Below, piece after piece: positions 7,767 through 59,816 of a stretch of 59,816 bases of DNA. Position 1 is the stretch's first letter, and each line of letters starts with the position of its first letter. The notes below the pieces were generated by a model, which made no database searches, had not been told where the DNA came from, and saw only the letters and a list, made by a program, of their open reading frames with translations. The DNA lies in IMG/VR virus record IMGVR_UViG_3300002140_000076. One strand, 5' to 3'. This DNA is from a virus. The translations under genes were made by a program, and so were the position numbers.

Positions 7767-7896
7767 TATATATATATAGAAATATATAACTTTATTATTT
7801 TTTCCCTACATAGGGGGAATAAAAAACAAGCATTTTCAACATAACAATTAGTAATCAGATAGTTAGGTATTAAAAATCAACATAAAATCAACATAA
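7767..7896 (+). promoter_or_regulatory. AT-rich module, copy 1: (TA)6, T-run, 17-mer AGCATTTTCAACATAAC (7829-7845), 33-nt spacer, 18-mer AACATAAAATCAACATAA (7879-7896). It abuts the primase ATG.
   Basis: The same blocks with the same 33-nt spacing recur at 58949..59083. Function (promoter or origin) is unknown. Confidence 0.6.
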
Positions 7897-7897
7897 G

Positions 7898-10330
7898 ATG
7901 ACATATAATGTAACAATTTTCAAGAACATAAAGGAGACGGATACACCGTTCTACCGAGACGTAAAGGTTCTCCTTGATAGGGTAAAGAACGGAGAGTCAA
8001 AGAATTTAGTTAAAAAAATACGTGCAGAAAAAGATAAGTCTGAGCGTAATGAATTAAAAAAATTACTTCCAGCGATTTGTTTTAGCGGTAAGTTTAATAA
8101 AAGAAATGATAGTTCATTGGTCGAGCATAGCGGATTGATATGTTTGGACTTTGATGGGTACGACAGAACCAGAGACTTACTTTTTGACAAGGATAAATTG
8201 TCAAAGGATAAGTTTGTATTCTCTGTGTTCGTATCTCCTTCAGGAAATGGGCTTAAGGTCTTGATGAAGATCCCGACAGAGGTCAACAACCACGTTAGCT
8301 ACTTCAACGCAATTGGCAAACACTTCAACTCACCACACTTTGATTCAGTGGTTAAGAATGTGTCTCGTGTATGTTACGAGTCGTTTGACCCTTTGATTTA
8401 CATCAACTATGATTCAAAGATATGGACTGTTCTTGATGATCCAGAGTATATCGAGGTAGTTAAGAATGTTGATGCGCCAACGATAGCAATAACAGATGAG
8501 AACAAGATAGTTGAGATTCTTGTGAAATGGTGGACAAAGAAGTATCCGATGGTAGATGGTCAGAGAAATCATAATGTATTTGTTTTGGCTATGGCGTTCA
8601 ATGATTATGGAATTGCAAAGTCATTAGCTGGTTATGTCTTGAACCAGTACTCAGACACCGACTTCCCAATTAGTGAGATATCTCGCACAATTGATTCCGC
8701 ATATGCAAATACAGGAAACTTTGGTTCTAAGTATTATGAGGATACTGAAAAAATAAGTGAGATAAAGTCACAACTTAACAATGGTGTATCAAAAAATGAT
8801 ATTCGCTATCAGTTAAAGGGGTCAGATATTGATAGCGAGATAATTGAATTAGTTCTAAATAGAATTGAGAATAGTGATTCATTGGATGTTTTTTGGACTA
8901 AAAACGATAAAGGTTTAGTTAAAATAATTCATCACAAATTCAAAACATTTCTTGAAGACAGTGGATTCTATAAGTTTTGTCCAGAGGGAGGAAAAAATTA
9001 TGTATTCGTAAAGGTTACAAATAATTTAGTTGACCACACTTCTGAGAAAGATATTAAGGATTTCATATTGAATTATCTTGAGACCATGGATGATATGGCT
9101 ATTTATAATTACTTCGCAGACCAGACGAGATTCTTTAAGGAAGATTTCTTGACTCTGTTGTCTACCATTGACATCTACTTCATAGAAGATACTAAGGATA
9201 CATCGTATTTGTACTATATTAATTGTGCAGTTAAGATTACTGAAAACACAGTAGAGCCAATTGACTACCTTGACTTAGGTGGTTACGTTTGGAAGGACCA
9301 TGTTGTTGATAGAGTTTTTGATATATGTGACGATAACTCATGCGATTACAAACAGTTCATTGGACGCATATGTGCTAACGATGAGGCTAGGGTAAAGACA
9401 TTGGAAAGTACCATTGGATTCTTGCTGCATGGTTATAAGAATTTATCATATTGTCCAGCTATAATTCTAAATGATGAGATGATTAGCGACAATCCAGAGG
9501 GTGGAACGGGTAAAGGATTATTCATGAGCGCAATAGGAAAAATGAAGAAGTTGGTTGTAATTGATGGCAAGGCATTTGCGTTTGAGAAATCATTCCCGTA
9601 TCAATTGGTATCAGCAGACACACAAGCTTTATGTTTTGATGATGTTAAGAAACACTTTGATTTTGAAAGATTGTTCAGTGTGGTAACAGAAGGTTTAACG
9701 CTTGAGAAGAAGAATAAAGATGCTATTAAGATCCCATTTAGCAGGTCTCCAAAGATCGCTATTACAACAAACTATGCCATCAAAGGTAGTGGTAACTCAT
9801 TTGCAAGACGTAAGTGGGAGGTTGAACTTCACCAGCACTACAGTAAGGATTATACTCCATTAGATGAGTTTGGGAAACATTTCTTTGCTGATTGGGATGA
9901 GTTTGAGTGGTGTCAGTTTGACAATTATATGATATCATGTCTTCAATTATATCTTGGTAAAGGACTGATTAAGGGTTCATTTGTTAATCTTGAAATTAGA
10001 AATTTATCAGCAGAGACATCACCTGATTTCATTGAGTGGTGTGGGTTAGTTAATGGTGCTGAGGCGAATCACGAGCTTAGAGTAGGTTTCAAGGTTAGGC
10101 TACAAGATGCCTATAATGAATTTATTTCTGAGTACCCTGATTATGCTCCAAAGTCAAGGTATAGCGTAAGCAGGATGAAGTTTGCAAAATGGGTATATGC
10201 ATATGCATTATTCATGACTGACGTAGCTCCTGAGATTGGAAGAGACATGCATGGTAAATGGATGTACATTAGGAGGTCATTGGGTGATTCGCCAAAAGTT
10301 TTAAGCAAATCGGTAATCAACGACAAATAA
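7898..10330 (+). CDS. Primase-helicase: VirE-N/BT4734-like primase-polymerase domain fused to a D5-like P-loop helicase (810 aa)
   Basis: The N-terminal part has SGLICLDFDGY and VFVSPSGNGLKVLMKIP, as in VirE_N/prim-pol. The central Walker A is NPEGGTGKGLF, with a Walker B-like LCFDDV typical of D5/P4-type SF3 helicases. Confidence 0.8.
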   Translation: MTYNVTIFKNIKETDTPFYRDVKVLLDRVKNGESKNLVKKIRAEKDKSERNELKKLLPAICFSGKFNKRNDSSLVEHSGLICLDFDGYDRTRDLLFDKDKLSKDKFVFSVFVSPSGNGLKVLMKIPTEVNNHVSYFNAIGKHFNSPHFDSVVKNVSRVCYESFDPLIYINYDSKIWTVLDDPEYIEVVKNVDAPTIAITDENKIVEILVKWWTKKYPMVDGQRNHNVFVLAMAFNDYGIAKSLAGYVLNQYSDTDFPISEISRTIDSAYANTGNFGSKYYEDTEKISEIKSQLNNGVSKNDIRYQLKGSDIDSEIIELVLNRIENSDSLDVFWTKNDKGLVKIIHHKFKTFLEDSGFYKFCPEGGKNYVFVKVTNNLVDHTSEKDIKDFILNYLETMDDMAIYNYFADQTRFFKEDFLTLLSTIDIYFIEDTKDTSYLYYINCAVKITENTVEPIDYLDLGGYVWKDHVVDRVFDICDDNSCDYKQFIGRICANDEARVKTLESTIGFLLHGYKNLSYCPAIILNDEMISDNPEGGTGKGLFMSAIGKMKKLVVIDGKAFAFEKSFPYQLVSADTQALCFDDVKKHFDFERLFSVVTEGLTLEKKNKDAIKIPFSRSPKIAITTNYAIKGSGNSFARRKWEVELHQHYSKDYTPLDEFGKHFFADWDEFEWCQFDNYMISCLQLYLGKGLIKGSFVNLEIRNLSAETSPDFIEWCGLVNGAEANHELRVGFKVRLQDAYNEFISEYPDYAPKSRYSVSRMKFAKWVYAYALFMTDVAPEIGRDMHGKWMYIRRSLGDSPKVLSKSVINDK

Positions 10331-26422: not shown

Positions 26423-27247
26423 CTATATTGAAAATGGGTTAGAATACAAATCAAATATTGAATTGTTTACTGCGTATGGATTCGGCATACCTGGAGTTGC
26501 TGGATTGTTTACTGCGTATGGATTCGGAGCACTTGGAGGAGCAAATACTGAATTGTTTACTGAAAATGGGTTAGAATACAAATCAAATACTGAATTGCTT
26601 GATATATATGGATTTGGCATACCTTGACCTGCTGCTTTACCTTGTTGAGGTGCTGCTTCACCTGCACCAACAACACCTGTTACTACCTTAGATTTTGATT
26701 TAGGATATAGGCTTGGCATTGCTATTGCTTGCTGAGTTGTATTTGCCACACCTTGGATACCTGCCTGCAGTGCTTGCTGAGAAGCAAATCTCGCATCAGC
26801 AGCAGCCTGTTGATTTCCTTGAATCTCCATTGTGTCAAGCCCGACATTTATATCTCTTAGTCTTGAGTCTTCTTCAAGAATTGCATTCTCAATATTAGTT
26901 AAATCATTTGATTGTCTCTCAGCTATGTTAGCCTGACCCATCTGTTGACCTGCATATATTTGACCAGCAGCAGAGGCAGCTCCTCTATCGCTCTCAGCAG
27001 CAGCCTGAGTAATCATAGCTCCTTGAGCAAGTAGAGCCATTCTCTCTGCATTGTACGGCTCTTTCTTGATTGACATCTGCTCCGCATAGTTTACCTGCAA
27101 AGCTTTTCTAGCCTCGGCTAGTGCCTTATCCGCTTCATTCTGGAATTCGAGCTGTTTATTTTTCTCTTTATTTGCCTGAGCAAACGATACAGCAGTTGTC
27201 CCTGCCTGTATAACTAAACCTGCAATGCCTGCTATTAATCCTGCCAT
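26423..27247 (-). CDS. Internal-virion protein candidate (274 aa) with an N-terminal hydrophobic helix, a Q/A-rich middle and a C-terminal N/P-rich repeat array
   Basis: N-terminus MAGLIAGIAGLVIQAGTTAVSFA. The C-terminus has repeated NPYAVNN and S(V/I)FDLYSNPFS(V/I) units, mirrored by DNA repeats at 26430-26597. Confidence 0.65.
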   Translation of the reverse strand: MAGLIAGIAGLVIQAGTTAVSFAQANKEKNKQLEFQNEADKALAEARKALQVNYAEQMSIKKEPYNAERMALLAQGAMITQAAAESDRGAASAAGQIYAGQQMGQANIAERQSNDLTNIENAILEEDSRLRDINVGLDTMEIQGNQQAAADARFASQQALQAGIQGVANTTQQAIAMPSLYPKSKSKVVTGVVGAGEAAPQQGKAAGQGMPNPYISSNSVFDLYSNPFSVNNSVFAPPSAPNPYAVNNPATPGMPNPYAVNNSIFDLYSNPFSI

Positions 27248-27767: not shown

Positions 27768-27775
27768 CAAAGATA
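27768..27775 (-). promoter_or_regulatory. -7 promoter box TATCTTTG (CAAAGATA on the plus strand)
   Basis: Matches TAnnTTTG, 8 nt upstream of the ATG at 27759. Confidence 0.4.
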
Positions 27776-37040: not shown

Positions 37041-38462
37041 TTAGTTTTGGAACAAGAAGAAGTTGTTTGCACCTAGTGTACATACTGCTCTTTCAGACAA
37101 GAAGTTAACCTCCATTGCATCAAGATCAGATGTTTCTGCACCACCTGCTGAACCTGTAATCCAAGTTTTGTAACGGCGATCTTCAGTTTCTGAAGCTCTG
37201 TAACGTACATGTAAGAATGGACGTTTTGCGTTCTTACCAAGGATTTGGTCATAAACAGTTGTAGATCCAGCTGGAACTAACAATCCGTTTACTTTACCTG
37301 AACCAGCTGCTGTTGGCAAACCACCACGCATTGTTGGATCGTTCAAGTATTTCCAATCAGATTTGTAGAAATCGTAACCTCTACGGAATCCTGAGAACCC
37401 TAAGTTCAAAGCCATTTCTTTGTCGTTTTCAAACAAACCATAAGAAGTACCGCCTGCTCCATAAGAGTTTTGTGCAGCTAACATATCATCGATGCTAAAG
37501 CTAAATGCTCTATCAACAAATAATGCGTTTTCTTCAATTGATCCTTGTTTGTCAAGACGAGATACGATAGCATCGAAGTCAGCCAATGTTGTTGGATAAC
37601 CACCACCCCATACGTTTCCACGTTGGTTTACCGAATAGAATACACCTTCAGAACCTTTGTTACCAACATCACCAGCAGTTGCCGCAGCACCTGAACCAGT
37701 TTCAGCAGGAACAGCTTCGATCATTGCAGTTTCCAAGTAGTCATCGAAACGCAAACGAGTTTCGTGCTCTGACTTCATGTACCACAAATAACCATTAGCA
37801 CCATTCTCAGTTGTTACTTCAACCCATCCGATTTGAGCCATATCAGAACCTGATACTGCATACTTATCTTTGATGATGATTGGAGAGTTCTCGAAGATCT
37901 CATCGTCAGCTTCCAAAGAACCCTGCATTCCATTTGTTCCTTTTTTGAACTCAGAACCATAGATGAAAATTGACCATTTATCTGTAGCTGTTGCATTTGT
38001 GATACCAGCTGCATTGTAGAATGCTACATCAAAAGTACCAGCTGTAGTGTTTACTGCTGTTACGATTGCTTTGTAGTTAGCTCCACCTGCGTTAGCTGTG
38101 ATCATAAGTGTTTGACCAGCACGAACCGCAATAGCACCTGATGCAGCTGGGTTCAATGTGTCATTAACTGTGAATGTCGCAACATCTGAGTTTGTAAGAA
38201 CTGTAGTTGTACAGTCAACATACTTAGTATGTAAACGACCTTGTTCTGCCCATTTGATAAGGTCAGAGTTAGTCGGCATCTCTGCTCCTACCATACGTAA
38301 GAAAGAAGATACTGTTCTGTTACCATATCTTTCGAATTCTTTTTCGTAAGTATCTGGTAAATATTGATTTAAGAAATCAAAATTACTAATGTAATTTGAC
38401 TTCAAAGGAACTTGTTGTGCACTTGGCTGCAATTGGTATCCTGGTACTGCTTGTACTGACAT
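37041..38462 (-). CDS. Major capsid protein candidate (473 aa)
   Basis: Follows the scaffold-like gene in the portal-scaffold-capsid order. Size fits HK97-fold capsid proteins. A strong terminator lies directly downstream. Confidence 0.7.
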   Translation of the reverse strand: MSVQAVPGYQLQPSAQQVPLKSNYISNFDFLNQYLPDTYEKEFERYGNRTVSSFLRMVGAEMPTNSDLIKWAEQGRLHTKYVDCTTTVLTNSDVATFTVNDTLNPAASGAIAVRAGQTLMITANAGGANYKAIVTAVNTTAGTFDVAFYNAAGITNATATDKWSIFIYGSEFKKGTNGMQGSLEADDEIFENSPIIIKDKYAVSGSDMAQIGWVEVTTENGANGYLWYMKSEHETRLRFDDYLETAMIEAVPAETGSGAAATAGDVGNKGSEGVFYSVNQRGNVWGGGYPTTLADFDAIVSRLDKQGSIEENALFVDRAFSFSIDDMLAAQNSYGAGGTSYGLFENDKEMALNLGFSGFRRGYDFYKSDWKYLNDPTMRGGLPTAAGSGKVNGLLVPAGSTTVYDQILGKNAKRPFLHVRYRASETEDRRYKTWITGSAGGAETSDLDAMEVNFLSERAVCTLGANNFFLFQN

Positions 38463-53311: not shown

Positions 53312-53331
53312 TTTATTTATTTATTTATTTA
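53312..53331. repeat. (TTTA)5 tetranucleotide repeat forming the whole intergenic spacer
   Basis: Read directly. On the coding strand it is (TAAA)5, containing the stop of 53329..54231 and ending 1 nt before the next ATG. Confidence 0.9.
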
Positions 53332-54231
53332 AAAATGTTCTACGATTCTTACTCTATTAATAGTAGCTGAATCAGCAATGCCTGTTCTTAGTATTGCAAA
53401 AATAATGTATAAATCAGCAGTTGGATCAATAGTAACTTGACTTCTAACGTTTTGTGATGCACCAAGATCATTACTGGCTTGATAATTAAAATTATAACCG
53501 TATATTGTATTTCCAATTTTTTGAAAATCTCTTATATTTCTTGTCCACCCTCCATCATTTTGTTGATTAGCACCAGTTCCAATTCTAGTTGCGCCAATTA
53601 ATGAATTGGTTGTATTAACATAAACTTGTGATTGTACTATGCCAGAAGTACCAACTCTATATGTACCCCATGATGTCTCTAAAATTGAATTAGTTGCAAG
53701 TGTATTTGCAGGAACTAAAATACTACCAGAAATTTGTGATGTGGAACCATTTCCTCCTGTAGTGGTTGTCCCCTCTACAATAGATCCTAAGTTTGCTAAC
53801 CCAGCAACTACCCCATTTACACCAGGTACACCTTGTATACCTTGTGGTCCAGCAGCTCCTTGACTTGCTAATAAAGCCCAGTCAGTAGTATTAATATCTG
53901 GAGTTACAGCTGAAGAAGTTGGATTAATGCAAAACCAAGATGCACCACCAAAACTTACAGCATCATCTAAAACATATGATGTGCCTCCAACAAAAGCTCC
54001 TTGCCAGTTTAACCCAGCTGGTCCTACTGCACCGTCTACCCCCTGAATACCTTGAGCACCTGTTTGTCCTACTGGACCTTGAGGACCCTGAGCACCAGCA
54101 GGTACAGTATCTAATATGTCTTGCATTGTATACGGCTCAGTCTCAGAGTTTATCTGTGCTGATTTCTTCTCTACTAGATTTACAGTATCTGCAATTCCAA
54201 TGAATCTTGTTGTTAATGGTATATTTGCCAT
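53329..54231 (-). CDS. Collagen-like tail fibre protein, paralog B (300 aa)
   Basis: Has G-X-Y runs GAQGPQGPVGQTGAQGIQGVDGAVGPAG and GAAGPQGIQGVPGVNG flanking a W..G.F....Y..DD.V..GG..W carbohydrate-binding-like unit. The N-terminal ~145 aa are closely paralogous to paralog A, identical from about residue 31. Confidence 0.8.
   Translation of the reverse strand: MANIPLTTRFIGIADTVNLVEKKSAQINSETEPYTMQDILDTVPAGAQGPQGPVGQTGAQGIQGVDGAVGPAGLNWQGAFVGGTSYVLDDAVSFGGASWFCINPTSSAVTPDINTTDWALLASQGAAGPQGIQGVPGVNGVVAGLANLGSIVEGTTTTGGNGSTSQISGSILVPANTLATNSILETSWGTYRVGTSGIVQSQVYVNTTNSLIGATRIGTGANQQNDGGWTRNIRDFQKIGNTIYGYNFNYQASNDLGASQNVRSQVTIDPTADLYIIFAILRTGIADSATINRVRIVEHF
53822..54146. repeat. 325-bp near-identical direct repeat, copy 1 (partner at 54971..55295)
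   Basis: Constant offset of 1149 bp. Only one mismatch was noticed by eye (agcagctcc versus aacagctcc). Confidence 0.9.
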
Positions 54232-54236
54232 GCTTA

Positions 54237-54252
54237 TTTATTTATTTATTTA
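54237..54252. repeat. (TTTA)4 tetranucleotide spacer
   Basis: Read directly. It spans the stop of 54250..55380 and runs towards the ATG of 53329..54231. Confidence 0.9.
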
Positions 54253-55380
54253 TACGTACTTAGTAGCTCTTGCCATCTCAACAACTGAACTATCGTTTAT
54301 ATCTGATAATGCAATAGTAAATAGTAAGTAATTATTTACAGTATGATCAAATGCAACAGGTGTGGTATTTGGCATTCCTGCGTAGTCTGTTAGATTTGAA
54401 GTAGTTGCAGGATAAACAGTTAATGTGTTTGATGATATACGAGCAGTTCTAATTCCTTGAACAACAAGATTTGATCCACCGCCACTACCTCCGTTTAAAG
54501 TAAATAAAGCTATTGTAGTTCCTCCACCAGTTGGACTTGTACTTAGCATAACTCCACAAGTATGATTACCTGATTGCCCTGTTTTATGATACCTTGCAAC
54601 AAACTCAAGCATACCGCCTGTAGCATTAAATGTATATGCAGGGATAAGAATAGTTTGAGAAATTGTGGCAGCAAGTGTGCCTGTTACAGCAGTTCCGTCT
54701 GTTACCTTTAAACCAACTACCATTGGGTTTGATGGATTGGCATGAACAATTGGATTAGCAGGATCAGTTGTGTCTACGAATATGTTTGATCCTGGAACTA
54801 TTGACTCAACAAGACCCAAATCGCCCGAAACAAGTACAGAATCACCGTTAATTGTTTTTATATTTGTTCCAGAAACAAGGTCGTCTTGTTTCCCGTTAAG
54901 CTCACTTTGTAGATCTGTTTGATTGCTTAAAGTCCCTGTAATGCCACCCCAAACAGGTGCTAATGATACACCAGGTACACCTTGTATACCTTGTGGTCCA
55001 ACAGCTCCTTGACTTGCTAATAAAGCCCAGTCAGTAGTATTAATATCTGGAGTTACAGCTGAAGAAGTTGGATTAATGCAAAACCAAGATGCACCACCAA
55101 AACTTACAGCATCATCTAAAACATATGATGTGCCTCCAACAAAAGCTCCTTGCCAGTTTAACCCAGCTGGTCCTACTGCACCGTCTACCCCCTGAATACC
55201 TTGAGCACCTGTTTGTCCTACTGGACCTTGAGGACCCTGAGCACCAGCAGGTACAGTATCTAATATGTCTTGCATTGTATACGGCTCAGTCTCAGCATTA
55301 ATCTGTGCTGATTTTCTCTCCGTTAAGTCTACGCTCTCTGAGATTCCAATGAATCTTGTTGTTACTGGTATGTTTGCCAT
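54250..55380 (-). CDS. Collagen-like tail fibre protein, paralog A (376 aa)
   Basis: The N-terminal ~145 aa are closely paralogous to paralog B, with the same collagen and carbohydrate-binding-like block. The C-terminal domain is unrelated. Confidence 0.8.
   Translation of the reverse strand: MANIPVTTRFIGISESVDLTERKSAQINAETEPYTMQDILDTVPAGAQGPQGPVGQTGAQGIQGVDGAVGPAGLNWQGAFVGGTSYVLDDAVSFGGASWFCINPTSSAVTPDINTTDWALLASQGAVGPQGIQGVPGVSLAPVWGGITGTLSNQTDLQSELNGKQDDLVSGTNIKTINGDSVLVSGDLGLVESIVPGSNIFVDTTDPANPIVHANPSNPMVVGLKVTDGTAVTGTLAATISQTILIPAYTFNATGGMLEFVARYHKTGQSGNHTCGVMLSTSPTGGGTTIALFTLNGGSGGGSNLVVQGIRTARISSNTLTVYPATTSNLTDYAGMPNTTPVAFDHTVNNYLLFTIALSDINDSSVVEMARATKYV
54971..55295. repeat. 325-bp near-identical direct repeat, copy 2
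   Basis: See 53822..54146. Confidence 0.9.
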
Positions 55381-55381
55381 G

Positions 55382-55401
55382 TTTATTTATTTATTTATTT
55401 A
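55382..55401. repeat. (TTTA)5 tetranucleotide spacer
   Basis: Read directly. It contains the stop of ORF 55395..55574 and precedes the ATG at 55380. Confidence 0.9.
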
Positions 55402-55574
55402 TTTTTATAATATAAAATCTTGTTAATCAATAAGTTAGGGTCATTGAGACTTTCTTTTCTTTTTTGACACCCACACGGCTTCTTTGTTACCTCCGAAACC
55501 TTTTCAACTACAGCCTTTATTCCTGTTAGTTGTGTAATTTTTTCAATCGTATCTCCTAATCCTTTTGATTCCAT
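55395..55574 (-). CDS. Small conserved-looking protein (59 aa, below the track cutoff)
   Basis: Hand translation gives MESKGLGDTIEKITQLTGIKAVVEKVSEVTKKPCGCQKRKESLNDPNLLINKILYYKNK*. The GLGDTI.K.T..TGI....CGC..R pattern is familiar to me from small phage ORFs. Confidence 0.45.
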   Translation of the reverse strand: MESKGLGDTIEKITQLTGIKAVVEKVSEVTKKPCGCQKRKESLNDPNLLINKILYYKNK

Positions 55575-55578
55575 TTTA

Positions 55579-55586
55579 CAAAGATA
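55579..55586 (-). promoter_or_regulatory. -7 promoter box TATCTTTG, 4 nt before the ATG at 55574
   Basis: CAAAGATA on the plus strand. Implies a leaderless-type mRNA. Confidence 0.35.
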
Positions 55587-55587
55587 A

Positions 55588-55725
55588 CTATTTTCCTTGA
55601 CCCTTATATTTTTTCGTATAATTCTTAGATGACTTCATGGATGACTCTTTCGTCTTAGCATGTACGCCTGGTCTGCTTACTTTTTTTGTTGCAAGTTTTG
55701 CGATAGTGTTTGATTTTACAGCCAT
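55588..55725 (-). CDS. Tiny basic protein (45 aa)
   Basis: Hand translation gives MAVKSNTIAKLATKKVSRPGVHAKTKESSMKSSKNYTKKYKGQGK*. Confidence 0.4.
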   Translation of the reverse strand: MAVKSNTIAKLATKKVSRPGVHAKTKESSMKSSKNYTKKYKGQGK

Positions 55726-55859
55726 TACTTTTTCTTTTTATGCACTAAAGGTTTACTAGTATTAGTATGAATTTTACCTGTGTGTAGTTTAGTACCCATT
55801 TTATGAGTAGCACCCTTCCACTCTTTTCCATCTTTTGTGTAATGTTTTACGCCTTTCAT
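55725..55859 (-). CDS. Tiny basic His/Lys-rich protein (44 aa)
   Basis: Hand translation gives MKGVKHYTKDGKEWKGATHKMGTKLHTGKIHTNTSKPLVHKKKK*. It has a TAATG overlap with the next ORF. Confidence 0.4.
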   Translation of the reverse strand: MKGVKHYTKDGKEWKGATHKMGTKLHTGKIHTNTSKPLVHKKKK

Positions 55860-55865
55860 AATATT

Positions 55866-56138
55866 TTAACAATTCCATTTTTTTAATGCTAGAGCCTTTC
55901 TTGTTGGTTTCCCCTTCTCATCTTTCATTGATCCAGGCATACCAGACATTCTAGCGCAAAAGCTTTTACGTCTTTTTGCATCCTTGCTTCCAGCTTTTAA
56001 TTTGGAAGGCTTAGTAGTTACAGCCATCTTTAGATTACTACCTGGATTATCTTTTTTATAACTAGCAACTCCCTTAGCGTTCAATCCTCCAGATGGGCTC
56101 TTCCCCTCTTTTCTTGTCCAAGCTGGTGTATTAGCCAT
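55866..56138 (-). CDS. Small basic protein (90 aa)
   Basis: ORF-track ORF, K/R-rich (KRRKSFCARMSGMPG...KGKPTRKALALKKWNC), tiled with its neighbours. Confidence 0.55.
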   Translation of the reverse strand: MANTPAWTRKEGKSPSGGLNAKGVASYKKDNPGSNLKMAVTTKPSKLKAGSKDAKRRKSFCARMSGMPGSMKDEKGKPTRKALALKKWNC

Positions 56139-56139
56139 A

Positions 56140-56352
56140 TTACTTATTTTTATATCTTGGTAATTTAGTTTTGTTTGCTAATGTTGCAAGACCTGGCACT
56201 CTAACGGGATTAATCGTATCTTGCTTCTTTCTGATCTCACTCCACTTCATTACGTCTTTAGTTTTAAAGTTCTCAGCATCAAAATTAGGCACTGTTCCTT
56301 TCAATGCATCACCCTTTACGTAGTCAGGTTTTTTTTCGTTATCTGTGCTCAT
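56140..56352 (-). CDS. Small basic protein (70 aa), paralog of 56349..56522
   Basis: Shares VPNFDAENFK(T/N)K and a 31-nt exact DNA repeat (56262-56292 versus 56462-56492) with the upstream ORF. Confidence 0.55.
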   Translation of the reverse strand: MSTDNEKKPDYVKGDALKGTVPNFDAENFKTKDVMKWSEIRKKQDTINPVRVPGLATLANKTKLPRYKNK

Positions 56353-56522
56353 CGATATTCGTTTTTAATTTTCTTTACTAATTTTACAGCACCCTGAAAT
56401 TTATCAGTATTAATCTTATCTTGACCCTCTCTGATCTTACCCCAATCCCTTACAACTTTATTTTTAAAGTTCTCAGCATCAAAATTAGGCACAATTCCAT
56501 TAACGTAGTTAGAATTTTTCAT
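56349..56522 (-). CDS. Small basic protein (57 aa, below the track cutoff), paralog of 56140..56352
   Basis: Hand translation gives MKNSNYVNGIVPNFDAENFKNKVVRDWGKIREGQDKINTDKFQGAVKLVKKIKNEYR*. It has an ATGA overlap with the next ORF. Confidence 0.5.
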   Translation of the reverse strand: MKNSNYVNGIVPNFDAENFKNKVVRDWGKIREGQDKINTDKFQGAVKLVKKIKNEYR

Positions 56523-56536
56523 GTTTTTAAATTTTA

Positions 56537-56555
56537 TAACTTTGCATCAAAGGTA
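56537..56555. promoter_or_regulatory. Back-to-back divergent -7 boxes: TAACTTTG (plus, 56537-56544) and TACCTTTG (minus, 56548-56555)
   Basis: Both match TAnnTTTG inside the 52-bp spacer between the divergent ORFs 56349..56522 and 56575..57030. Confidence 0.45.
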
Positions 56556-56574
56556 CAAATAAATTTAATTTAAT

Positions 56575-57030
56575 ATGGGTAACAAAAGAACTCCTCCTCC
56601 ACAGGACTACATGAAATATTGGAGAGTGGTAAGATACTACGTTAAGATAAAATACAAGCTGTCAACGGCAGACTTAGATATGTTACTATTCCTTTTCTCA
56701 GAGAATTACTTTAACAAGTCAAAATTCTTAGAATTTAACGAGCTCACATCTTGGGATCCTAATAGATTTTATAGACTCCTAAAACAAGGATGGATAGTAA
56801 AGTTTCGTGAAAGAAAAGGAAGAGAGGCTACCCTATACGAGATATCATACAAGGGGAAGAGAATGGTTCAAAGTGTTTACGACAAATTGAATGGTGACGA
56901 GATATCCGAAAACAGATCAGTAAACCCTATGTTCCTAAAAAATGTCAACTACGAGGATAAGGTCTATAGAAACTTCATCAAGAAGATGAACGAAACTACA
57001 AGACAACAACAACGTCTCTCTCAACAATAA
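56575..57030 (+). CDS. Putative winged-helix DNA-binding protein (151 aa), the only plus-strand gene inside the minus arm
   Basis: DLDMLLFLFSENYFNKSKFLEF...FYRLLKQGWIVKFRERKGREATLYEISYKGKRMV has an HTH plus beta-wing pattern, as in MarR-like proteins. The function is tentative. Confidence 0.45.
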   Translation: MGNKRTPPPQDYMKYWRVVRYYVKIKYKLSTADLDMLLFLFSENYFNKSKFLEFNELTSWDPNRFYRLLKQGWIVKFRERKGREATLYEISYKGKRMVQSVYDKLNGDEISENRSVNPMFLKNVNYEDKVYRNFIKKMNETTRQQQRLSQQ

Positions 57031-57253
57031 TTGTATAGGTGTCACCGTTAACAACCATTGTGTAACCTGCTCTAGTGTCATAGTATATTGAGTCTCCTTC
57101 ATGGATAACCTCAACGTCCGTTCCAGGCTTTACAACTAATCCTTTTTTATAACGCATTTGATTTACGTCATCTGATGACAATAACAACCCAGAGGAGTGC
57201 TTAACCTCCTCTTCGATTGTCTTAATCAATATATATTTTCCAATTGGCTTCAT
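56996..57253 (-). CDS. groS: Co-chaperonin GroES / Cpn10 (85 aa)
   Basis: KPIGKYILIKTIEEEVKHSSGLLL...KGLVVKPGTDV..IHEGDSIYY...GYTMVVNGDTYTIIVERDVVVVL follows the Cpn10 pattern. It lies 3 nt downstream of groEL. Confidence 0.8.
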   Translation of the reverse strand: MKPIGKYILIKTIEEEVKHSSGLLLSSDDVNQMRYKKGLVVKPGTDVEVIHEGDSIYYDTRAGYTMVVNGDTYTIIVERDVVVVL

Positions 57254-57256
57254 GTC

Positions 57257-58846
57257 TTATTTTGCTTCATATGTTCGTGCCATTGTGATAATGGCGTTTG
57301 TTGATAATATTGTAACGGCAACAGATACAGCATTCTCAAGGGCTGACTTGGTTACCTTTAACGGGTCAATTATCCCCATTTTATACATACTTCCCCAATC
57401 AAGATTCTTTAGATCATAACCGTAGTCAATGTCACTCAATAGGATAGCCTCAGAGTCCTCATCCTTCACCTCAATACCTGCATTTAGCCATATCTGTTTC
57501 AGAGGCGCACGTAGTGCGCTCGATAGTATTTTTTGTGCAATTGTCCCTGTGAGACCCAACGACTCTTTGTAAAGAGCCACCCCTCCACCTGGTACGATGC
57601 CCTCTTCAAGTGCTGACCGAACTGCGCAAACAGCATCATCAACTCTATCGTAAAGCTCTTTCTGTTCTAGGTCAGTATTACCACCAACGTAGATCACACC
57701 AACACCACCAGTAAGTGATGCTATTCTTGATAGGATAAATTCTTTGTCAGCCTTCTTGTTTGTATTGTTGTATGCGTCTCTCAGCTCAGATACTCTTTCT
57801 GATACCATAGCAGACTGCTCAGTGTTCTCTTTTACGATGACAGATGAGTCACGCCCAACTATTACCTTAGCCGCATGACCCAAATCTGATACTGACATTA
57901 TGCTCAGATCGTCACCTGTCTTCTCAGAGAAGTATGTTGCGTTTACTGACAATGCTATGTCCTGCATCAGCTCGTGTTGTTTGTAACCGAAGTTTGGTGG
58001 GGCAATAGCACATACCTTTAGACCATTCTTCATCACGTTTGCTGCAAGAGTATTAATCACATTCTGTGAGCATGGTGCGATGATCAGTAATCTCTTACCC
58101 TCATTTATGATTGGTTTCAGTATGTTCTCAATGCTAAGTAAATTACTTATCTCAGCGTCACTAACAAGCACATAGGTGTCCTCAAGCATACACTCATCCT
58201 TACGGTGATCGTTGATGAATAGGTTTGAGGTATAGCCCCTGTCAATCTTTAAACCGTCAGTTGTCTCGTAGTACGTGTCAGATGTCTGTGAGTTAGCAAT
58301 TGTAACGACCCCTGTTTTACCCACCTTAGAGTACACCTCAGAGATGATCGCACCTATCTTGGTGTCATTGTTCGCTGAGATGATTGCAACGTCTCTAAGG
58401 GTCTTCCCTGACACCTTCTTTGAAGTCTTCTTTAGATTACTTATGATTGACTTGGTCTCTGACACAAGATCACGGAGCACCTCAGTCTTATTCTCGTTAG
58501 ATGTGATCAGCTCAAAGCCAGCCTTAACAAGTGCCTCTGTCAGCACGATTGATGTTGTTGTACCATCACCAGCAGATGTAGCTGTACGATCAGCCGCCTC
58601 TTTCATCATCCTTACCGCAAGGTTCTCAACTGGGTCTAATAGCTCAACAGCCTTAGCGACAGTGACACCATCCTTAGTTACCGTAATACCATGTGTGTGA
58701 TGTGGGCTCTCAATTAGTACCGTCTGTCCCGATGGACCCAACGTAGACTTAACTGCTGAAGCGATAGCTTCGATGCCCTTAAATAATTTCTCACGAGCCT
58801 CCTCGTTAAACTTTAAGTCCTTTGGAGAATATCCTAACTCTGACAT
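57257..58846 (-). CDS. groL: Chaperonin GroEL / Cpn60 (529 aa), lacking the C-terminal GGM tail
   Basis: The N-terminus KDLKFNEEAREKLFKGIEAIASAVKSTLGPSGQTVLIE...ITVTKDGVTVAKAVEL...AGDGTTTSIVLTEAL is the canonical GroEL equatorial-domain signature. GIIDPLKVTKSALENA lies near the C-terminus. Confidence 0.92.
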   Translation of the reverse strand: MSELGYSPKDLKFNEEAREKLFKGIEAIASAVKSTLGPSGQTVLIESPHHTHGITVTKDGVTVAKAVELLDPVENLAVRMMKEAADRTATSAGDGTTTSIVLTEALVKAGFELITSNENKTEVLRDLVSETKSIISNLKKTSKKVSGKTLRDVAIISANNDTKIGAIISEVYSKVGKTGVVTIANSQTSDTYYETTDGLKIDRGYTSNLFINDHRKDECMLEDTYVLVSDAEISNLLSIENILKPIINEGKRLLIIAPCSQNVINTLAANVMKNGLKVCAIAPPNFGYKQHELMQDIALSVNATYFSEKTGDDLSIMSVSDLGHAAKVIVGRDSSVIVKENTEQSAMVSERVSELRDAYNNTNKKADKEFILSRIASLTGGVGVIYVGGNTDLEQKELYDRVDDAVCAVRSALEEGIVPGGGVALYKESLGLTGTIAQKILSSALRAPLKQIWLNAGIEVKDEDSEAILLSDIDYGYDLKNLDWGSMYKMGIIDPLKVTKSALENAVSVAVTILSTNAIITMARTYEAK

Positions 58847-58873
58847 AATTCTTTATTTGATTTAATTTTTTTT

Positions 58874-58881
58874 CAAAGATA
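58874..58881 (-). promoter_or_regulatory. -7 promoter box TATCTTTG upstream of groEL
   Basis: CAAAGATA on the plus strand, 27 nt upstream of the ATG at 58846. Confidence 0.45.
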
Positions 58882-58948
58882 CTATTATTTCTTTAAGTAA
58901 TAAGAGATTCCGAAAATATAGAAATGTTGGTTTTTTCCTATATATATA

Positions 58949-59083
58949 TATATTAATTTATATAATAATATTATTTTTTTTTTAAAATTCTAAGTAAGTA
59001 AAATGAGCATTTTCAACATAACCACTGATGTTCAAGTAGTTACAAAAGCAGAATGAACATAAAATCAACATAAATTAGCATAA
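58949..59083 (+). promoter_or_regulatory. AT-rich module, copy 2: (TA)7, T-run, 17-mer AGCATTTTCAACATAAC (59016-59032), 33-nt spacer, 18-mer AACATAAAATCAACATAA (59066-59083)
   Basis: Same blocks, order, orientation and 33-nt spacing as 7767..7896. Confidence 0.6.
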
Positions 59084-59109
59084 AGAGATGAAACTTAACA
59101 CATTTTAAC

Positions 59110-59147
59110 AAAAAAAAGAGCAGATTATTAGTCTACTCCTATTTTTT
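59110..59147. terminator. Bidirectional terminator-like hairpin flanked by A8 and T6
   Basis: aaaaaaaa-gagcagat-tatt-agtctactc-ct-atttttt, an imperfect 8-9 bp stem. On the minus strand it follows ORF 59161..59340 and is followed by T8. Confidence 0.5.
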
Positions 59148-59160
59148 AAAGTGTGTTTTT

Positions 59161-59340
59161 CTAGTCCAATTGGTCAATTCCAAGAAACTTCTCTCTAATC
59201 TCTGCCTGAATTATGCCATCCGCAATCATCGATACTTTCTTTTCACGCTTTAAAAAATGCTTTAACTCTACAGCTTTTTGAATTCCTGTCATACCAAGTT
59301 CTTTCTTTGGTCCCATCATTTTATTTTTCATCTTCTCCAT
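59161..59340 (-). CDS. Small hypothetical protein (59 aa, below the track cutoff)
   Basis: Hand translation gives MEKMKNKMMGPKKELGMTGIQKAVELKHFLKREKKVSMIADGIIQAEIREKFLGIDQLD* with no internal stops. Confidence 0.4.
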   Translation of the reverse strand: MEKMKNKMMGPKKELGMTGIQKAVELKHFLKREKKVSMIADGIIQAEIREKFLGIDQLD

Positions 59341-59474
59341 TTATAATTTATACTAAATAATCCTAAATACAATACAAACTCATTATAATCATGATCATCA
59401 TCAGAAGGGTAATACGACCATCCAAAAAGAATACTCGTTTCTAACAATAATCCGATACTTAATTCCCAATTCAT
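59328..59474 (-). CDS. Small hypothetical protein (48 aa), the first ORF of the minus arm
   Basis: Hand translation gives MNWELSIGLLLETSILFGWSYYPSDDDHDYNEFVLYLGLFSINYKWRR*. A TATCTTTG box lies 3 nt upstream. Confidence 0.35.
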   Translation of the reverse strand: MNWELSIGLLLETSILFGWSYYPSDDDHDYNEFVLYLGLFSINYKWRR

Positions 59475-59477
59475 ATA

Positions 59478-59485
59478 CAAAGATA
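59478..59485 (-). promoter_or_regulatory. -7 promoter box TATCTTTG at the head of the minus arm
   Basis: CAAAGATA on the plus strand, 3 nt upstream of the ATG at 59474 and about 80 bp from the right terminal repeat. Confidence 0.4.
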
Positions 59486-59564
59486 AAAAAAAATATTAGA
59501 TGTCTATAGTATTTGGGTTCTATGTACCTGTGGGGAGAATTGACGAAAAAGGAAACGACATTTA

Positions 59565-59816
59565 TTTCGAGGGTGGGGGTACTGTTTTAAACTTTTTTGC
59601 TGGACTTTTTGGCGTTTATTCTAGCTATTATATCCTATGCATGCATAGTATTATTGCTATGCACTGCATAACATCCTCGTCCGTTTATCGTGGTCGGCTC
59701 CCCTCGTTCCTTCGCTCATTTCCCCGCCCCCACATCGCAGCTATTTACTATGCATGCATAGTATTAATCTTATTCACTGCACAACAAAAGCATCTACCAT
59801 GGTAACTAATTATGCG
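59565..59816. repeat. Right copy of the 252-bp direct terminal repeat
   Basis: Base-for-base identical to 1..252 by visual comparison. Confidence 0.95.

Follow-up and report, generated by a model that had tools for sequence, protein, structure and literature searches.

Does a phage of about 60 kb that encodes both a chaperonin and a co-chaperonin carry a folding machine of its own, and which protein would such a machine fold? The question is raised by IMG/VR virus record IMGVR_UViG_3300002140_000076, a stretch of viral DNA of 59,816 nt (the window) in which a groEL gene is followed almost immediately by a groES gene. The initial annotation of this DNA had read the pair as a self-contained folding machine with a capsid protein or two giant phage proteins as possible clients. 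Our analysis found the operon to be genuine, yet an ordinary representative of a known group, for which that interpretation is plausible but not new. The two genes are likely to encode a phage-dedicated, co-transcribed GroEL ring and GroES lid, probably serving a putative capsid protein of 51.5 kDa. Their positions in the window are as follows.

57257-58846, minus strand: groEL, encoding a tail-less group I chaperonin (Cpn60) of 529 aa and 57.1 kDa

56996-57253, minus strand: groES, encoding a Cpn10 co-chaperonin of 85 aa and 9.5 kDa

The gap between the two genes (57254-57256) is 3 nt, which makes this a compact form of the operon. The initial annotation had described a 529-aa Cpn60 and an 85-aa Cpn10 at this spacing, and both the open reading frames (ORFs) and the Pfam and PHROGs matches agree with that description. 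GroEL matched Pfam PF00118 (Cpn60_TCP1) over residues 28-522 with 167.8 bits (cut-off 34.3; E = 4.7e-49) and the PHROGs family phrog_5725, 'chaperonin groEL', at 1e-133. In a phmmer comparison its residues 8-521 aligned to residues 2-521 of E. coli GroEL (1aon) with E = 2e-98. The NCBIfam subfamily models NF009487 (471 against a cut-off of 352) and NF000592 (461 against 397) were passed, and the equivalog model TIGR02348 was failed with 451 bits, below its cut-off of 582.1. Judged by these scores GroEL is a divergent group I member and no orthologue-grade copy of cellular GroEL.

The residues that bind and hydrolyze ATP are retained. The initial annotation had pointed to an AGDGTTT motif and to the lack of a C-terminal GGM tail; the SAGDGTTTS loop is indeed present, and the C-terminus, which ends in NAIITMARTYEAK, has no GGM repeats. 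Conservation was surveyed in 72 distinct GroEL sequences of the clade to which the protein belongs (see below), using E. coli numbering. None of the 72 has a GGM tail. T30, L31, G32, P33, K51, D52, G53, D87, G88 and T89-T91 are invariant in all of them, as are I150, S151, D398, G414, G416 and D495, while the middle position of the GGG stretch at 414-416, G415, is G, A or S. From this residue pattern the ATPase site of GroEL is judged to be intact.

The surfaces that contact the lid, the client and the opposite ring are more altered. In the apical groove Y199, F204 and L237 are retained and L259 is replaced by I or V, and at the site where the GroES loop binds the clade has fixed the changes L234E, Y203L, V263A and V264A. 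The cavity wall carries E252P, E255S, D359K and E304K together with deletion of D253. The residues of the inter-ring contact, K105, A109, E434, R452, E461, S463 and V464, are variable in the clade. Neither contacts of the E. coli type nor GGM tails occur throughout the GroEL family.

The small protein encoded by groES scored 41.8 bits against Pfam PF00166 (Cpn10; cut-off 21.1, E = 1.1e-10) and matched phrog_3188, 'co-chaperonin GroES', at 6.5e-14. It stayed below every GroES cut-off of NCBIfam (best 40 bits, with 120 required), and by these profile matches it is a divergent Cpn10 member. The AlphaFold2 model had a predicted local distance difference test (pLDDT) score of 81, with a low-confidence, disordered loop at residues 16-30. 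Foldseek matched the model to the Cpn10 chains 1wnr, 1p3h and 4pj1 with a probability of 1.00, with a template modeling (TM) score of 0.71 to 1wnr, and returned gp31 (1g31) as a weaker match. The mobile-loop segment S21-G22-L23-L24-L25 aligns with G24-I25-V26-L27 of the E. coli protein; G22 and L23 are invariant in the clade and L25 is nearly so, giving the motif SGL(L/I)L, and the loop is 2 aa longer. The roof β-hairpin is missing, owing to a deletion of 9 residues relative to the GroES proteins of E. coli, Thermus and actinobacteria. This deletion is common to the whole clade and to the GroES of Elemovirus, and 78 of 84 relatives have a GroES of exactly 85 aa.

Ratios of nonsynonymous to synonymous substitution rates (dN/dS), calculated by comparison with a relative that is 91% identical in amino-acid sequence, were 0.084 for groEL and 0.059 for groES, which indicates strong purifying selection on both genes at the codon level. 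The GC content of groEL is 43.5% as compared to 35.7% for the genome, and at third codon positions (GC3) it is 42% as compared to about 30% in the structural genes. The GC excess of groEL recurs in 83 of 83 relatives with a mean of 6.2 percentage points, and could be due to amino-acid composition or to selection for expression.

The operon resides in a complete phage genome. Bases 1-252 of the window are identical to bases 59565-59816, so that both ends carry an exact direct repeat of 252 bp, which reflects either an assembly closing on itself or a terminal repeat of the genome. From this exact overlap it follows that the unit genome has a length of 59,564 bp and is complete. The window encodes a large terminase, a portal, virion structural proteins, a primase/helicase, a helicase and an exonuclease, and the earlier description of a phage of about 60 kb is thus borne out. 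With the exception of the uncultured genome MW202828.1 (75% identity for the large terminase and 72% for the structural protein), relatives of the large terminase and of a 473-aa structural protein were found only in Flavobacteriia phages. These include Elemovirus (46% and 49%, respectively), Cellulophaga phi38:1 (37% and 42%), and phages of Tenacibaculum and Maribacter. The source of the DNA is an aquatic phage related to Flavobacteriia podophages. No tRNA gene was found in the window.

Phage nucleotide and tblastn searches covered 50,697 phage records. The operon had no nucleotide match in this set and its relatives were seen only at the protein level. By tblastn, GroEL homologues were detected in 260 of the records, which include Vibrio, Flavobacterium, Cellulophaga, Pseudomonas, Bacteroides and crAss-like phages. 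Both partners are annotated in Elemovirus (GroEL then GroES), Immutovirus (GroES then GroEL), Callevirus (Cpn10, one ORF, GroEL) and the crAss-like cr111_1, and Cpn10 is among the core proteins of 'Pervagoviridae' (PMC8776804). The earlier statement that phage GroEL homologues are rare does not agree with these 260 records or with several cultured phages annotated with both partners. In IMG/VR at least 377 contigs encode a GroEL relative. A metagenome protein collection contained more than 120 clusters of GroEL proteins with 67-91% identity, of which many lay on contigs of 56-68 kb, and a similar series of GroES proteins of almost uniformly 85 aa. The exact GroEL sequence of the window occurs in IMG as 'chaperonin GroEL' on 73 contigs, and an ENA contig (L117) is 99.7% identical over groEL.

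In a trimmed alignment, sequence identity was 59-97% within the clade and 33-42% between the clade and cellular GroELs, whereas cellular GroELs of different phyla were 58-97% identical to each other. The neighbor-joining (NJ) tree recovered the clade as monophyletic on a long branch, with Elemovirus on another long branch; identity to the chaperonin gp146 of phage EL was about 26%. A scan of GTDB (185,579 species genomes) revealed close relatives only on contigs shorter than 13 kb in metagenome-assembled genomes (MAGs) of inconsistent taxonomy, and genuine chromosomal GroELs reached only 34-40% identity. Because they carry the same phage gene neighbors, these MAG contigs are mis-binned phage DNA, and public MAGs are contaminated by this phage group. 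The MAG labels on the operon contigs L003-L013 were Aliivibrio, Aureispira, Parvibaculum, Saprospiraceae, Chthoniobacterales, TMED88 and Bacteroidetes, and one 'Aliivibrio' MAG holds five separate operon contigs. A recent copy of a host gene was rejected as an origin: it is ruled out by the 33-42% identity to cellular GroELs, by the short mis-binned contigs and by the GC excess throughout the relatives. The initial annotation had allowed for recent, unmodified acquisition from a host; according to the identity matrix, the NJ tree and the GTDB scan this is not the case. Sequence comparison places the pair in a large, old, virus-specific clade of aquatic phages of about 60 kb.

This clade has been described before. 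Marine et al. (2017, ISME J; PMC5649160) reported virioplankton clades 'GroEL>GroES-1/-2' with reversed gene order, GroES clusters that lack the roof hairpin ('no dome loop'), a recurrent unidentified downstream ORF, and structural proteins matching those of Cellulophaga podophages, and they proposed folding of the capsid in an enlarged cavity (PMC5649160). The window agrees with these clades in the GroEL>GroES order, the roof-less GroES, a conserved downstream ORF, Cellulophaga-podophage-like structural genes, aquatic origin and distinctness from cellular GroEL. Nothing essential is different; the window adds a complete genome of 59.6 kb and a compact operon with a 3-nt gap. GenBank entries labeled 'uncultured virus' gave matches of 72% for GroEL (AQM32675.1, P0071) and 74% for GroES (ASN63425.1, P0205), both of which are also members of the clade described here. 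By layout, roof-less GroES, structural genes and protein identity, the operon of the window is a member of the published virioplankton GroEL>GroES group. The novelty that the initial annotation had attached to the arrangement is lost with the 2017 publication, in which the order, the roof-less GroES and the link to Cellulophaga podophages were all reported (PMC5649160). Its value as a discovery is small, also since such operons are routinely annotated. Its practical value appears to lie in being a compact and complete example, with a gap of 3 nt and no inserted cargo, of a type of pair that has not been studied biochemically.

Among individual genomes the nearest in GenBank is Caudoviricetes sp. 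ctfjg026 (MW202828.1; Manatee Spring, 60,850 bp, circular). Its groEL and groES, both annotated, are arranged as in the window and face a convergent 'repressor' gene, and identities are 62% for GroEL and 55% for GroES; it differs in its freshwater-spring source and represents another species-level lineage. The Elemovirus phages (vB_FspP_elemoA-F) are cultured Flavobacterium podophages of about 60 kb in which 'chaperonin groEL' is directly followed by 'co-chaperonin GroES'. Their GroES is likewise roof-less and keeps the SGL-hydrophobic motif. Their GroEL, in contrast, is only 38-39% identical and has different neighbors of the ATP site (P33Y, G88S, T91C) while retaining L234, and tblastn gave no Elemovirus match to the 151-aa ORF that lies downstream of the operon in the window. 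More distant parallels are found in T4 gp31 and RB49 CocO, phage lids of the Cpn10 fold without a roof hairpin, which are believed to give the capsid protein a larger cage (PMC5649160). T4, however, supplies only the lid and uses host GroEL, whereas the phage of the window supplies the ring as well. EL gp146, OBP gp246 and AR9 gp228 are phage proteins of the Cpn60 superfamily that act as ATP-dependent chaperones (PMC7185714, PMC9598537). All three are encoded by giant phages, larger than 200 kb, and have no co-chaperonin, unlike the window with its adjacent and conserved GroES; the identity of about 26% to the window GroEL refers to EL gp146, to which direct comparison was confined. In the PDB the window GroEL matched 6tmt at 8e-35, as compared to 2e-98 for E. 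coli GroEL and 1e-98 to 1e-109 for cellular GroELs.

Expression of the operon was examined from the sequences that precede groEL, where two elements were found.

58874-58881, minus strand: TATCTTTG box, a match to TAnnTTTG 27 nt upstream of the groEL ATG

59116-59140, minus strand: terminator-like hairpin with a 9-pair stem and then the T-run TTTTTTGTTA, a consensus match only

TAnnTTTG, which the TATCTTTG box matches, is the Bacteroidota-type -7 promoter consensus. No Shine-Dalgarno sequence was present between the box and the groEL ATG. The window contains 15 copies of the octamer where 4.8 would be expected; none of 100 shuffles reached 15, and the octamer is likely the main promoter -7 box of the phage. 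Exact copies at 27768, 36160, 50892, 55579 and 58874 lie 4-27 nt ahead of five minus-strand ORF starts; at two of these sites the distance from box to start is 4-8 nt, which would imply leaderless or near-leaderless mRNAs. In 65 of 69 distinct relatives a TAnnTTTG box lies no more than 60 nt from the groEL start, usually 15-29 nt ahead of it, where chance would give about 5%. The promoter-like box proposed in the initial annotation is supported. In the relatives L118 and L119 (87% identical) the block AAAGAAATAATAGTATCTTTG is kept while its flanks have diverged.

A separate promoter for groES was considered and rejected: among relatives in which groEL and groES are at least 70 nt apart, none (0/51) has a TAnnTTTG within 62 nt upstream of groES. 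The absence of a groES-proximal box in these long-spacer relatives argues for co-transcription of groEL and groES. In 84 of 84 related loci that hold both genes groEL precedes groES on the same strand; the clade loci were retrieved by their GroEL. The spacer between the genes ranges from -44 to 1,862 nt across the relatives. Long spacers often hold unrelated cargo ORFs on the same strand, marking an insertion hot spot within the operon (relatives L003, L053, L055-L058, L062, L071, L073, L078, L087, L088 and L098). Judged by eye, this cargo comprises 2-oxoglutarate (2OG)-oxygenase-like (185 aa), MazG-like, HNH-like and AsnA/aminoacyl-tRNA synthetase-like (281 aa) proteins as well as small Cys-rich or membrane proteins.

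The terminator-like hairpin follows the upstream minus-strand ORF 59161-59340 and parts that unit from the groEL promoter region. Between this ORF and groEL lies an AT-rich intergenic region of 314 nt (58847-59160), which contains an (AT)n run at about 58945-58965. Control by the host heat-shock system was also considered and rejected, as no CIRCE element (controlling inverted repeat of chaperone expression) was found with up to 3 mismatches allowed. Rfam gave no family across 55000-59816 at E values up to 0.1. A scan for sigma-70-type promoters returned 8 sites against 12.0 in shuffles and was uninformative, as expected because the cultured relatives infect Bacteroidota. The intergenic region further holds one copy of an 83-nt repeat (7823-7905 and 59000-59082, 73% identity) that contains AACATAAAATCAACATAA; the other ends where the primase/helicase gene starts. 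The repeat may represent a shared plus-strand regulatory or origin-like element.

These features suggest the following mode of action, which resembles that of a bacterial GroEL/ES system. One transcript starting from the TAnnTTTG promoter would encode a divergent, catalytically intact GroEL and then its own GroES lid. The GroEL subunits would assemble into a ring of seven, to which ATP and a non-native phage protein bind, after which the phage GroES would dock by its G-L-L-L mobile loop onto the co-diverged apical groove. The resulting cage would be without the GroES roof hairpin, without GGM tails, and with a re-charged wall. Such a roomier and differently lined chamber might suit a phage protein that is poorly handled by the host machine, most likely the 51.5-kDa capsid protein, and its folding would parallel that of gp23 with T4 gp31. 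The proposed client is encoded elsewhere in the genome.

37041-38462, minus strand: putative major capsid protein, 473 aa, 51.5 kDa, candidate client by inference

The 473-aa protein matched phrog_13704, 'virion structural protein', at 4.6e-103. Its gene follows those for the large terminase, the portal and a 366-aa ORF, and at 42-49% identity the protein resembles structural proteins of Cellulophaga phi38:1 and Elemovirus, which both carry chaperonin genes. Because Pfam gave no match for it, nor for the 366-, 2947-, 1549-, 645- and 506-aa proteins, the capsid assignment rests on PHROGs, synteny and homology to the Cellulophaga-phage and Elemovirus proteins. The GroEL/ES cage of E. coli encapsulates proteins of up to about 60 kDa. 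The putative capsid protein is a plausible client in view of its size and of the parallel with T4 gp31 and gp23. Of the clients suggested in the initial annotation the capsid protein can thus be maintained, whereas the 1549-aa (170 kDa) and 2947-aa (331 kDa) proteins are far above that limit.

Co-adaptation of the two chaperonin subunits was evaluated by comparing their distance matrices across the clade. The Mantel correlation between GroEL and GroES distances was 0.72, a value reached in none of 999 permutations; a control with a neighboring gene gave 0.65, and the partial correlation controlling for this gene was 0.55. This mirror-tree signal lends weak support to GroEL-GroES co-adaptation. 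The self-contained machine of the initial annotation is favored by the joint conservation of the pair in 84 loci, by the low dN/dS values of both genes, by the Mantel correlation and by the clade-wide change of the groove. Ring assembly, pairing specificity, ring number, cage enlargement and client identity are what we infer beyond the sequence features themselves.

Several points weigh against a dedicated ring and lid with a capsid client. The correlation between GroEL and GroES is only modestly above that with the neighboring, unrelated gene, and most of the correlated divergence may stem from shared ancestry. Losing hydrophobic residues from the groove could make substrate binding weaker instead of refining the pairing, and the inter-ring contact residues, which bear on ring stoichiometry, are not conserved. 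The capsid protein is proposed as client on the grounds of analogy and size alone. The characterized phage chaperonins EL gp146, OBP gp246 and AR9 gp228 all work without a co-chaperonin (PMC9598537), a counterpoint that is tempered by the identity of only about 26% between EL gp146 and the window GroEL. In the searched literature, the coverage of which was incomplete, we found no data on expression, assembly, ATPase activity or clients for this clade, and no biochemical study of any phage GroEL and GroES pair or of an Elemovirus chaperonin.

Other explanations of the operon were weighed against these data. The two proteins could act through mixed pairing, with the phage GroES working mainly on host GroEL like T4 gp31 and RB49 CocO, the phage GroEL borrowing host GroES, or both, which would amount to two separate takeovers of the host machine and no closed pair. 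Roof-less lids that use host GroEL are the classical phage solution, as in T4 gp31 (PMC5649160), to which the GroES model indeed showed a weaker structural match; GroES-only viruses outnumber GroEL carriers in viromes, and a mobile-loop motif of G and three hydrophobic residues is generic. We nevertheless consider such pairing unlikely in view of the constant order and strand of the two genes in all loci having both, and of the groove changes L234E, V263A and V264A, which together with the longer mobile loop suggest mutual adaptation. Moreover, no relative was seen that keeps GroES without GroEL, though the loci were retrieved by GroEL. A general role in proteostasis, in which the operon raises folding capacity or replaces a shut-off or overloaded host chaperonin for many clients, was raised as a possibility by Marine et al. 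(PMC5649160). The lack of CIRCE together with a phage-type promoter would make expression independent of host heat-shock control, and the elevated GC and GC3 of groEL, shared by all 83 relatives, may reflect selection for high expression. The clade-invariant remodeling of cavity lining, lid and tails fits a specialized client better, and phages with at least a 42% structural-protein match (Elemovirus, phi38:1) carry chaperonins, an association that is confounded by shared ancestry; we regard the general role as rather improbable.

The two remaining explanations have much less in their favor. GroEL might function independently of a lid like the EL, OBP and AR9 chaperonins, with another role for the 85-aa protein. 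This would be in line with all three biochemically studied phage chaperonins working without a lid and with the poor conservation of inter-ring contacts, which recalls the single-ring OBP and AR9 chaperonins. It is very improbable given the low identity to EL gp146 and the PDB match of 8e-35 as compared to 1e-98 to 1e-109 for cellular GroELs, and given that the 85-aa protein has the Cpn10 fold, a conserved mobile loop, a dN/dS of 0.059 and a constant linkage to groEL. That the operon would be a recent unmodified host acquisition, bacterial DNA or an assembly chimera might be suspected from a GC content of groEL about 8 points above the genome mean and from relatives in records labeled as bacterial MAGs. 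Yet the GC excess is common to the relatives, the 'MAG' contigs are short, with incompatible bin taxonomy and the same phage neighbors, the distance to all cellular GroELs sampled exceeds that among these GroELs themselves, the same operon is found inside dozens of contigs of 56-68 kb, and the genome closes on itself. We consider this origin extremely unlikely.

A more specific version of the dedicated GroEL-GroES pair can be formulated. The chaperonin may be a tail-less, possibly single ring without E. coli-type inter-ring contacts that, in contrast to all phage chaperonins studied to date, strictly needs its own roof-less lid, forming a cage that is open at the top or enlarged and is tuned to a single capsid protein, with expression possibly coupled to the MarR-like gene described below. 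If true, this would be the first virus-encoded GroEL/GroES pair to be characterized. This elaboration is tentative and we would sooner doubt it than accept it. The list of clade-fixed features, comprising L234E/V263A/V264A, the cavity charge, the missing GGM tail, the lack of conserved inter-ring contacts and the roofless lid, could guide experimental work.

The gene on the other side of groES is transcribed toward the operon.

56575-57030, plus strand: 151-aa ORF, predicted MarR-like winged helix-turn-helix protein, convergent with groES

The last 35 nt of this ORF overlap the 3' end of groES (56996-57030). Such a 3' overlap, of 32-39 nt and most often exactly 35 nt, was found in 71 of 84 clade loci, and a homologue of the ORF is present in 79 of 80 IMG/VR loci. 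Its dN/dS, from the comparison used for groEL and groES, was 0.037. Pfam, PHROGs and NCBIfam gave no match for the protein, which is restricted to the clade. Its AlphaFold2 model had a pLDDT of 88.8, and the top 50 PDB matches returned by Foldseek were all winged-helix repressors of the MarR/SlyA/SarA type (best E = 5.8e-4, TM-score about 0.45-0.5). The counterpart in MW202828 is annotated as 'repressor protein'. The predicted fold gives moderate support to a role as DNA-binding regulator, and the protein may be a regulator, or its gene may be coupled to the chaperonin operon by antisense transcription.

Further along the minus strand, 55395-56522 contains a string of ORFs, lysine-rich and very small (44-90 aa), which is preserved in the relatives L117-L119; the L117 counterpart of the 90-aa ORF matched Pfam DUF6321. 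Within this string the ORFs 56140-56352 and 56349-56522 form a paralogous pair with a 138-nt repeat of 78% identity. A direct repeat of 300 nt, 100% identical between 53818-54117 and 54967-55266, sits inside the adjacent tail-fiber-like paralogues 53329-54231 and 54250-55380 (both phrog_5073), which suggests recent gene conversion or duplication. Imperfect periodic repeats of 42-48 nt with 62-84% identity occur at 26426-26634, where they span the 3' end of a 645-aa ORF and the 5' end of a 274-aa ORF, both on the minus strand.

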